In this document: one piece after another, positions 33,401-36,400 of the stretch
Position numbering within the stretch: the stretch's first letter is position 1
Layout of the letters: each line of letters opens with the position of its first letter
NCBI RefSeq assembly: GCF_017348835.2
Contig: NZ_CP071375.1
Direction: 5' to 3' (one strand)
DNA: 64,000 bases
DNA from: Escherichia coli
GTDB lineage: Bacteria; Pseudomonadota; Gammaproteobacteria; Enterobacterales; Enterobacteriaceae
Program-made: the position numbers

Positions 33401-36400
33401 AACGTGGTATGGCTGCCAACCGCACTGGCGCGAAACAGCACGCTACCGTCCTGCACCACTGTCCCGGCATGGACGCTATCGCCTTCGCCTTTTTGCTGCG
33501 GGATAGGTTCGCCCGTCAGCATCGCTTCATCCAGCCATGCTTCGCCTTGGGTAATCTCGCCATCTACCGGCACGCGATCGCCGGTCGTCAGGCGCAGCAA
33601 CATACCTGGCTGCACTTCCGCCAGAGGCACGCTTTTTTCACCTTCGTCAGTAACCAGGCGCGCCGTCGGCGGAGTTAAATCGAGTAATTTCTCCAGCGCC
33701 TTTGAAGAACGCTGACGTGCGCGCGCTTCCAGCATATGACCGAGATTAATCAGACCGATAATCATCGCACTGGCTTCATAGTAAAGATGCCGCGCTTCCA
33801 TCGGGAACCACTGCGGCCACAGGTTGACGCTCATCGAATAGAGCCACGCCACGCCAGTACCCAGCGCCACCAGCGTATCCATCGTCGCTGCACCGTTCAG
33901 CAGGCTTTTCCATGCGCTGCGGTAAAAATGGCCGCCGGCGAAAACCATCACTGCCAGGGTTATCAGGCCGATAACCAACCACAGGCTGCGGTTGTCAGCG
34001 GTGACCATCATGTTATCGCCGATCATCCCCCAGACCATTACCGGGATACCCACAGCCAGTGCAACAATTGCCTGCCAGCGGAAGCGCTTCATCGTAGCGG
34101 CGGCGGTTTCTTGCTGGCGCTCGCGGCGTTTAGCGTCATCTTCAATCGCTTCCGCACCGTAGCCCGCTTTTTCCACCGCCTGCACTAAATCTTGTGGGGA
34201 GGCACTGCCCATCACCAGCGCAGTACGCTCCGCCAGGTTTACCCGTGCCTGAGTGACGCCCGGTACGCTTTGCAACGCATTTTGTACGCGGGTGACACAG
34301 CTGGCGCAGCTCATGCCGCTCAGCAGCAACTGCTGGCTGTCATCGTCATCGGCGGTCGCTGCCGGAAGCGCCTCAGAAACCGCTGTCAGTGCTTCCGACG
34401 GGATTGATGACTCCGCCAGCGGTTTAGCCTTTGGGTGGCTTACAGATGCGTCATAACCCGCTTGTTTGATGGTTTCGATCAGCTGTTCTGCACTGGCAGT
34501 CCCGGTAACGTGCGCTTCAGTGATAGACACATCCGCTTGTTCCACATCCGGGCGCTGTTCGAGACTTTCTTTCACGCGTTTAACGCAGTGACCGCAGGAC
34601 AGGCCGTCCAGGGTCAGGTCGATAGTTTGTGACATAAAACACTCCTTTAAGACAGTTTTGACTGGCTGTGATAAAGGTTAAACCTTCCAGCAAGGGGAAG
34701 GTCAAGAAATTAATAACCCAGGCGAGTAAAAGTCCGTAAAGATTAAAAAATCGGCTCGATTTGCATCAGGATTAGACATTTATCTCTTTGTTTTCCTGTA
34801 GTTAAGTTGCGGGTGCTAAGTTAAATCAGGATGCCTGAAAATCGGCACCGGGGTGAGGAATTACCTCCCGCATCTATAAAAAGGAGTTAACAAAAGATGT
34901 TAGATGCAAACAAATTACAGCAGGCAGTGGATCAGGCTTACACTCAATTTCACTCACTTAACGGCGGACAAAATGCCGATTACATTCCCTTTCTGGCGAA
35001 TGTGCCTGGTCAACTGGCAGCAGTGGCTATCGTGACCAGCGATGGCAACGTCTATAGTGCGGGTGACAGTGATTACCGCTTTGCGCTGGAATCCATCTCG
35101 AAAGTCTGTACGTTAGCCCTTGCGTTAGAAGATGTCGGCCCGCAGGCGGTACAGGACAAAATTGGCGCTGACCCGACCGGATTGCCCTTTAACTCAGTTA
35201 TCGCCTTAGAGTTGCATGGCGGCAAACCGCTTTCGCCACTGGTAAATGCTGGCGCTATTGCCACCACCAGCCTGATTAACGCTGAAAATGTTGAACAACG
35301 CTGGCAGCGAATTTTACATATCCAACAGCAACTGGCTGGCGAGCAGGTAGCGCTCTCTGACGAAGTCAACCAGTCGGAACAAACAACCAACTTCCATAAC
35401 CGGGCCATAGCCTGGCTGCTGTACTCCGCCGGATATCTCTATTGTGATGCAATGGAAGCCTGTGACGTGTACACCCGTCAGTGCTCCACGCTCATCAATA
35501 CTGTTGAACTGGCAACGCTTGGCGCGACGCTGGCGGCGGGGGGTGTGAATCCGCTGACGCATGAACGCGTTCTTCAGGCCGACAACGTGCCGTACATTCT
35601 GGCCGAAATGATGATGGAAGGGCTGTATGGTCGCTCCGGTGACTGGGCGTATCGCGTTGGTTTACCGGGCAAAAGCGGTGTAGGTGGCGGTATTCTGGCG
35701 GTCGTCCCTGGCGTGATGGGAATTGCCGCGTTCTCACCACCGCTGGACGAAGAAGGCAACAGTGTTCGCGGTCAAAAAATGGTGGCATCGGTCGCTAAGC
35801 AACTCGGCTATAACGTGTTTAAGGGCTGATCATGATGAACACGGAAGGTAATAACGGTAACAAACCCCTCGGTCTATGGAATGTCGTTTCCATCGGTATT
35901 GGGGCAATGGTGGGGGCGGGGATCTTCGCGCTGCTGGGGCAGGCTGCGTTGCTAATGGAAGCCTCGACATGGGTCGCCTTTGCTTTTGGCGGTATTGTGG
36001 CGATGTTTTCCGGTTATGCCTATGCGCGTCTGGGGGCGAGCTATCCCAGCAATGGCGGCATTATCGACTTCTTTCGTCGCGGATTAGGCAACGGCGTCTT
36101 TTCGCTGGCGCTCTCGTTACTGTACCTGTTGACGCTGGCGGTGAGCATCGCCATGGTCGCCCGTGCTTTTGGCGCTTATGCCGTGCAGTTTTTGCATGAA
36201 GGCAGCCAGGAGGAGCACCTTATTTTGCTCTACGCGTTGGGGATCATTGCGGTGATGACGCTTTTCAACTCCTTAAGCAACCATGCGGTAGGGCGGCTGG
36301 AAGTGATCCTCGTCGGCATTAAAATGATGATCCTGTTATTGCTGATTATTGCCGGTGTCTGGTCGCTGCAACCGGCGCATATTTCCGTCTCTGCGCCCCC

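Follow-up and report, generated by a model that had tools for sequence, protein, structure and literature searches.

In the 64-kb stretch of Escherichia coli DNA analysed here (the window), the copper exporter gene copA is preceded by an apparent operator for the activator CueR, and the place that cueR takes in E. coli K-12, after ybaT, is held by a type I secretion system (T1SS) island. This arrangement raises the question of where the regulator gene is, and of whether the island was inserted into a layout like that of K-12, as a preliminary description of the sequence had proposed. The explanation that very probably accounts for the locus joins three elements: a canonical copA promoter (PcopA), an intact cueR that lies behind glsA-ybaT and O-island 28 (OI-28), and a K-12 arrangement that is itself derived by deletion of the island. 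The coordinates of the features are collected in Table 1.

Table 1. Features of the copA-glsA-ybaT-OI-28 locus; positions are those of the window.
Feature	Position	Strand	Evidence and remarks
copA, Cu(I)-exporting P-type ATPase, 834 aa	32131-34635	minus	ORF; RefSeq annotation of the identical PE164 stretch
PcopA core promoter	34675-34705	minus	-35 TTGACC 34705-34700, 19-bp spacer, -10 TAACCT 34680-34675; exact pattern match
CueR operator dyad CCTTCC-N7-GGAAGG, CCTTCCAGCAAGGGGAAGG	34683-34701		direct read; coordinates as in the preliminary description
Escherichia-specific block, part 1: glsA upstream region, glsA (34897-35829), ybaT (35832-37124)	34707-37153	plus	outgroup intergenic comparison
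ybaT intrinsic terminator, 9-bp GC-rich stem GCGCAGTAC / GTACTGCGC, then T-tract CTTTGTCTTT	37136-37168	plus	terminator scan
OI-28 type I secretion/giant adhesin island	37154-64000	plus	continues to window-equivalent 64374
tolC28, TolC-family outer membrane protein	37462-38817	plus	TIGR01844, E = 1.7e-124
siiEA giant adhesin, 5' part, 5808 codons, cut by IS4	38920-56346	plus	ORF; RefSeq BapA-related adhesin SiiEA pseudogene without C-terminus
IS4, 1426 bp, 18-nt inverted repeats	56319-57744	plus	repeat search; transposase NF033592, E = 4.5e-91
siiEA, 3' part	57789-61136	plus	ORF; RefSeq pseudogene without N-terminus
hlyB28, T1SS ABC permease/ATPase, LssB type	61140-63302	plus	TIGR03375, E = 6e-252
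hlyD28, HlyD-family adaptor, 5' 702 nt in window	63299-64000	plus	PE164 annotation/sequence; TIGR01843, E = 1.6e-98, to the last profile position

The copA promoter and the CueR operator

The dyad upstream of copA had been read in the preliminary description as the MerR-type CueR site, and this reading holds. The dyad is exact, it is the single match in 64 kb even when up to one mismatch is allowed (chance expectation 0.08), and on the copA strand it sits inside the 19-bp spacer between TTGACC and TAACCT. An over-long spacer is typical of MerR-type promoters. CueR is a diffusible activator of this type that binds the dyad, and Cu(I)-CueR under-twists the spacer, which makes the -35 and -10 elements usable for RNA polymerase. 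A standard sigma-70 scan, which allows spacers of 16-18 bp, did not report PcopA because its spacer is 19 bp, as expected for the MerR type.

The copA/glsA intergenic region, exactly 261 bp (34636-34896), is identical to that of K-12 MG1655 at 259 of 261 positions, with 100% identity in the copA-proximal 81 bp that hold promoter and operator; copA itself is 97.6% identical to the K-12 gene at the nucleotide level. In 31 other Enterobacteriaceae loci the dyad lies 38-76 bp from the copA ATG. The PcopA of the window is the canonical E. coli copA promoter, identical to that of K-12, where CueR has reportedly been characterised as a MerR-family Cu(I) sensor (Outten 2000; Stoyanov 2001). From the 100% identity with the characterised K-12 promoter, Cu(I)-dependent activation by CueR would be expected at the window's PcopA as well.

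Control of glsA by the same operator, suggested by a supposed CueR-dependent copper induction of ybaS/ybaT, was also considered and dropped, since a review citing Djoko 2017 contradicts it and describes the copper induction of ybaS/ybaT as not directly associated with CueR. Short dispersed repeats resembling REP/BIME elements (~35-140 bp, 80-97% identical) were observed 3' of copA (31937-32097) and at two other intergenic sites (24798-24885 and 13417-13454), and a further copy adjoins ybbJ, past the window.

Location and state of cueR

No cueR was found in the 64-kb window by tblastn with a CueR protein query identical to the K-12 translation. The position of the gene was taken from the complete genome of E. 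coli PE164 (NZ_CP114128.1), which has 1 mismatch against the window in a 12 kb overlap. In PE164, cueR follows the HlyD-family gene directly and occupies window-equivalent positions 64471-64878, starting 471 nt past the end of the window; its ATG overlaps the stop codon of hlyD28 (ATGA), which ends at window-equivalent 64474. In K-12, by comparison, cueR follows ybaT after a 124-bp spacer. Two expectations of the preliminary description are borne out by these positions, namely that K-12 has cueR immediately downstream of ybaT and that cueR, if present here, lies beyond 64 kb. Adjacency of ybaT and cueR in K-12 and presence of the regulator gene, the two points on which that description could have failed, were both found.

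PE164 CueR is full length (NF007590, E = 5.9e-93, positions 1-135 of 135). Its sole difference from K-12 CueR is D103N, the N-terminal region with the DNA-binding helix-turn-helix and both Cu-binding cysteines, Cys112 and Cys120, being unchanged. Across complete E. coli genomes, cueR was found in 5424 of 5426. These data show an intact regulator gene in this genome, at a distance of 29.8 kb from its operator if the PE164 position is taken to apply. Compared with the K-12 system, promoter, dyad, spacer length and, apart from the one substitution, CueR are the same, whereas the distance from operator to cueR is 29.8 kb here and 2.6 kb in K-12. Because CueR is diffusible, this distance, be it 0.1, 2.6 or 29.8 kb, is irrelevant to the activation step at copA.

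Between cueR and ybbJ, PE164 carries a block of ~2.6 kb (window-equivalent 64882-67335; 12883-15336 of the PE164 locus) that K-12 is without. It encodes small hypothetical proteins, a lipoprotein and a YadA-family trimeric autotransporter, and it is also found in O157:H7 and in some island-less E. coli.

The OI-28 island

As the preliminary description had stated, the K-12 position of cueR after ybaT is held here by a T1SS island, with tolC28, siiEA, hlyB28 and hlyD28 in it. The matches to TIGR01844, TIGR03375 and TIGR01843 are all above the curated cut-offs, so that all three T1SS component types are present. The two genes that precede the island match NCBIfam models for glutaminase A (glsA) and an amino acid transporter (ybaT; APC family permease in RefSeq). 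The chromosomal position, from ybaT to cueR, is that of O-island 28 in enterohaemorrhagic E. coli (EHEC) O157:H7 EDL933, whose genes have been named z0608 (tolC28), z0609/z0615 (rtxA28/rtxB28), z0634 (hlyB28) and z0635 (hlyD28) (PMC12758282). According to the same paper, OI-28 mediates early adherence under RstA control. Site and gene order are shared by the window and O157:H7, the left ends are 99% identical, and in both the island is followed by the CueR protein WP_001026752.1 and then by the YadA-family gene block.

The giant adhesin gene siiEA (whole span 38920-61136) is present but not intact. IS4, flanked by a 13-bp target duplication, GAGCCAGCAGCAG, at 56306-56318 and 57745-57757, splits it, so that in this strain the island has only a pseudogene for its substrate; in O157:H7 Z910, by contrast, siiEA is broken by a frameshift or internal stop. 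The GC content of the island, 58-63%, is higher than that of the flanks, which argues for a foreign origin, although the island is old at this site. OI-28 was found in 958 of 5426 complete E. coli genomes, and the segment missing from K-12-type genomes amounts to ~27.2 kb as measured here, IS4 included.

The right end of the island, hlyB28-hlyD28, is only ~96% identical to most other E. coli copies, whereas the left end is 99% identical to that of O157:H7, and the island is thus a mosaic. At least 99% identity over window positions 61000-64000 was seen in only two complete genomes, PE164 and F2_81, both from pig, against ~96% for this end in the other ~930 island-bearing E. coli.

The ybaT-cueR spacer of K-12

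Alignment of the ybaT-cueR interval with K-12, the check proposed in the preliminary description, confirmed the adjacency of the two genes and revealed the composition of the K-12 spacer. In an alignment to both island borders, its first 28 bp after the ybaT stop codon correspond to the left border of the island (the ybaT flank), and the remaining ~95 bp to the hlyD28 3' end, from which 1 bp is missing. The translation of this relic comprises 31 codons and reads VVAVDIRTGKK, a frameshift, and then VLEYLLKPFNKAQEALRER up to a stop codon. The peptide is the conserved C-terminus of the HlyD family: the alignment of HlyD28 with E. coli HlyD (8dck) extends to the final residue of the latter, and the relic peptide shows a residue-by-residue match to the end of LipC and to the last positions of TIGR01843.

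The other end of the deletion lies inside the ybaT terminator. In the window this terminator folds with -16.3 kcal/mol (z = -6.2), while K-12 has its left arm only, the right arm being deleted, and gives no significant fold (z = +1.0). Island-less genomes, sampled evenly down the rankings, all have common breakpoints, the left one at window 37152-37154 and the right one at window-equivalent 64375, the deletion having removed window-equivalent 37154-64374. Microhomology at the junction is at most 1-3 ambiguous bases and is uninformative on the mechanism. Taken together, the hlyD28 relic and the halved ybaT terminator indicate that K-12 is a secondary deletion and not the pre-insertion state, and the common breakpoints indicate that K-12-type genomes descend from one ~27-kb deletion. 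The earlier proposal that the island was inserted relative to the K-12 layout is not upheld by this spacer, with its frameshifted relic and truncated terminator. The island was inserted at some point; the error lies only in taking K-12 for the state before insertion.

The relic together with cueR (window-equivalent 64375-64878; 12376-12879 of the PE164 locus) is 93.85% identical between this strain and K-12, compared with 97.6% for copA-ybaT and 99.0% for ybbJ-fetB in the flanks, and the differences in cueR are almost all synonymous. This divergent segment suggests either two old haplotypes or an import from another Escherichia lineage. Because the two haplotypes are 93.8% identical here and 97.6-99% identical in the flanks, recombination with other Escherichia lineages may have moved either allele and blurred what is ancestral and what is derived within E. 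coli.

The locus in other Escherichia and in outgroups

Outside E. coli, an intact island was found at the same site in E. whittamii. The hlyD28-cueR junction is also present in Escherichia sp. E1V33, in which the available locus begins inside hlyD28, and a heavily decayed island is carried by one lineage (locus L007) that is 91-95% identical to E. coli. The K-12 junction itself occurs in Escherichia sp. MOD1-EC7003, which is ~5% divergent from E. coli. E. albertii combines an intact ybaT terminator with a different, diverged hlyD28 relic of 55 nt, and its deletion was therefore independent; the rest of the E. albertii ybaT-cueR spacer resembles neither the island nor the DNA upstream of tolC28. 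The occurrence of island, junction or relics across Escherichia species indicates that the hlyD28-cueR junction predates their split. Separately, the glsA gene of MOD1-EC7003 has an internal deletion (8351-8578 of its locus, L006), with only residues 1-46 and 266-310 detectable.

An outgroup scan with the CueR query, taking one genome per species, returned 80 loci, E. fergusonii not being among the 80. In 42 of the 73 informative species loci, fewer than 200 bp separate copA from cueR. Outside Escherichia the two genes are typically divergent neighbours with the sequence ...ACCTTCCAnCAAGGGGAAGGTCAAGGGGGAAA-start, the operator being ~11 bp from the cueR start. Such a copA-cueR divergon without ybaS/ybaT has been described for Salmonella (PMC1526738; Permina et al., 2006). 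The operator and its distance from copA are the same in the divergon of Salmonella, Citrobacter, Enterobacter, Klebsiella and others; the difference is that cueR starts ~11 bp past the operator in those genera, where Escherichia has glsA-ybaT with or without OI-28 in between. The divergon layout is found neither in the window, with 29.8 kb between copA and cueR, nor in K-12, with 2.6 kb. The part of the window that is still homologous to the ancestral copA-cueR intergenic region ends with GGTCAAG at 34706, so that everything from 34707 to the cueR ATG, that is glsA-ybaT and OI-28, represents Escherichia-specific content, a foreign block.

From these comparisons the following history can be proposed. 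Ancestrally in Enterobacteriaceae, copA and cueR would have formed a divergon in which cueR started ~11 bp past the operator. In the Escherichia ancestor, GC-rich foreign DNA ending in hlyD28, plus glsA-ybaT, would have been placed between operator and cueR, and the island would later have been lost or have decayed several times. K-12-type genomes, ~82% of complete E. coli, would go back to one such deletion, which spared 95 bp of hlyD28 and one half of the ybaT terminator.

Alternative explanations

Three other readings of the locus were weighed. If cueR had been lost in this strain, the operator would be an orphan and copA unregulated or under another regulator, as the 64-kb window without cueR might suggest; this is practically negligible as an explanation, given that the matching genome PE164 has the gene 471 nt past the window, that nearly every complete E. 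coli genome carries it, and that the protein is full length with only D103N against K-12. A more natural reading takes K-12 as the original empty site, with the T1SS island inserted into the ybaT-cueR spacer in this lineage. It draws on the majority of complete E. coli genomes (82%) that are without the island, on the GC-richness of the island relative to its flanks, and on the word 'acquisition' used in the OI-28 paper (PMC12758282). The frameshifted 31-codon hlyD28 relic and the truncated ybaT terminator in the K-12 spacer nonetheless make it very unlikely, and so does the fact that E. whittamii, E. albertii and other Escherichia lineages carry the island or remnants of it at this very site.

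The identification of the relic could itself be doubted, if the 95 bp before cueR were the ancestral cueR leader and the frame of hlyD28 merely ran into it. The 24 nt that directly precede the ATG (ACAGGAGGCGTTGCGCGAACG...) are indeed conserved across Escherichia, E. albertii included, and contain a Shine-Dalgarno-like AGGAGG. An ancestral leader of this kind is nevertheless very improbable, because the encoded peptide matches the C-termini of E. coli HlyD and LipC and the final TIGR01843 positions, and because the cueR leaders of nine non-Escherichia genera are dissimilar, consisting of the operator, then GGGGGAAA, and the start codon. Deletion of a resident island therefore remains the preferred origin of the K-12 spacer.

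Transcription of cueR

The sigma-70 scan of the DNA preceding cueR, on the strand of the gene, detected no sigma-70-like promoter in K-12 and none in the island strain. We infer that cueR has lost its original upstream region and that its transcription now relies on present or former hlyD28 sequence. One possible source is a weak promoter within the retained last 95 bp of hlyD28. Read-through from the T1SS operon could serve in island strains, and read-through from glsA-ybaT, past the destroyed terminator, in K-12-type strains. A predicted ybaS-ybaT-ybbI operon (PMC1526738) fits read-through of the K-12 type, and so does the co-induction of cueR with ybaST at pH 2.5 (PMC9628877).

It is tentatively suggested, as a possibility rather than as the expected outcome, that the loss of OI-28 rewired cueR. 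In K-12-type strains the gene would then be reached by read-through from acid- and copper-induced glsA-ybaT, and in island strains it would close the RstA-controlled T1SS operon as its last, translationally coupled cistron. If this were true, the two haplotypes would couple copper sensing to different signals, and the published delta-OI-28 and delta-hlyD28 mutants might be polar on cueR.

Relation to published work

The operator, the regulator, the island and the Salmonella-type divergon have all been described already and are ordinary biology. Little is at stake for the operator finding itself, as its parts are described and a diffusible regulator works wherever its gene sits. In a literature search, no paper was found that calls the K-12 ybaT-cueR spacer an OI-28 deletion scar, a full-text search on ybaT-cueR and the cueR promoter found nothing, and the OI-28 paper (PMC12758282) makes no mention of cueR or ybaT. 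Recognition of the spacer as an OI-28 scar is a modest evolutionary correction and not a new kind of system. It makes K-12 unfit as the 'empty site' of OI-28, and the scar argues for ancient residence with repeated loss instead of recent acquisition by pathogens. Since hlyD28 contains the start codon and ribosome-binding site of cueR, and probably its promoter too, knock-outs of the island or of hlyD28 could disturb copper regulation.

Insertions between operator and cueR in other genera

Separation of copA from cueR was also observed in the wider family. In 31 of the 73 Enterobacteriaceae species loci, 0.2-8.5 kb lie between the two genes, and the operator always stays with copA. An insert of ~7.7 kb recurs between copA and cueR in Citrobacter and others. 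The gap between operator and cueR looks like a recurrent insertion site across Enterobacteriaceae. In Pseudescherichia vulneris and a related metagenome-assembled genome (MAG), the CueR operator occurs twice (positions 4063 and 6242 of locus L060; 6344 and 9970 of locus L063), one copy beside copA and the other 12-13 bp before the cueR ATG, the two flanking an insert of 2.3-3.7 kb.
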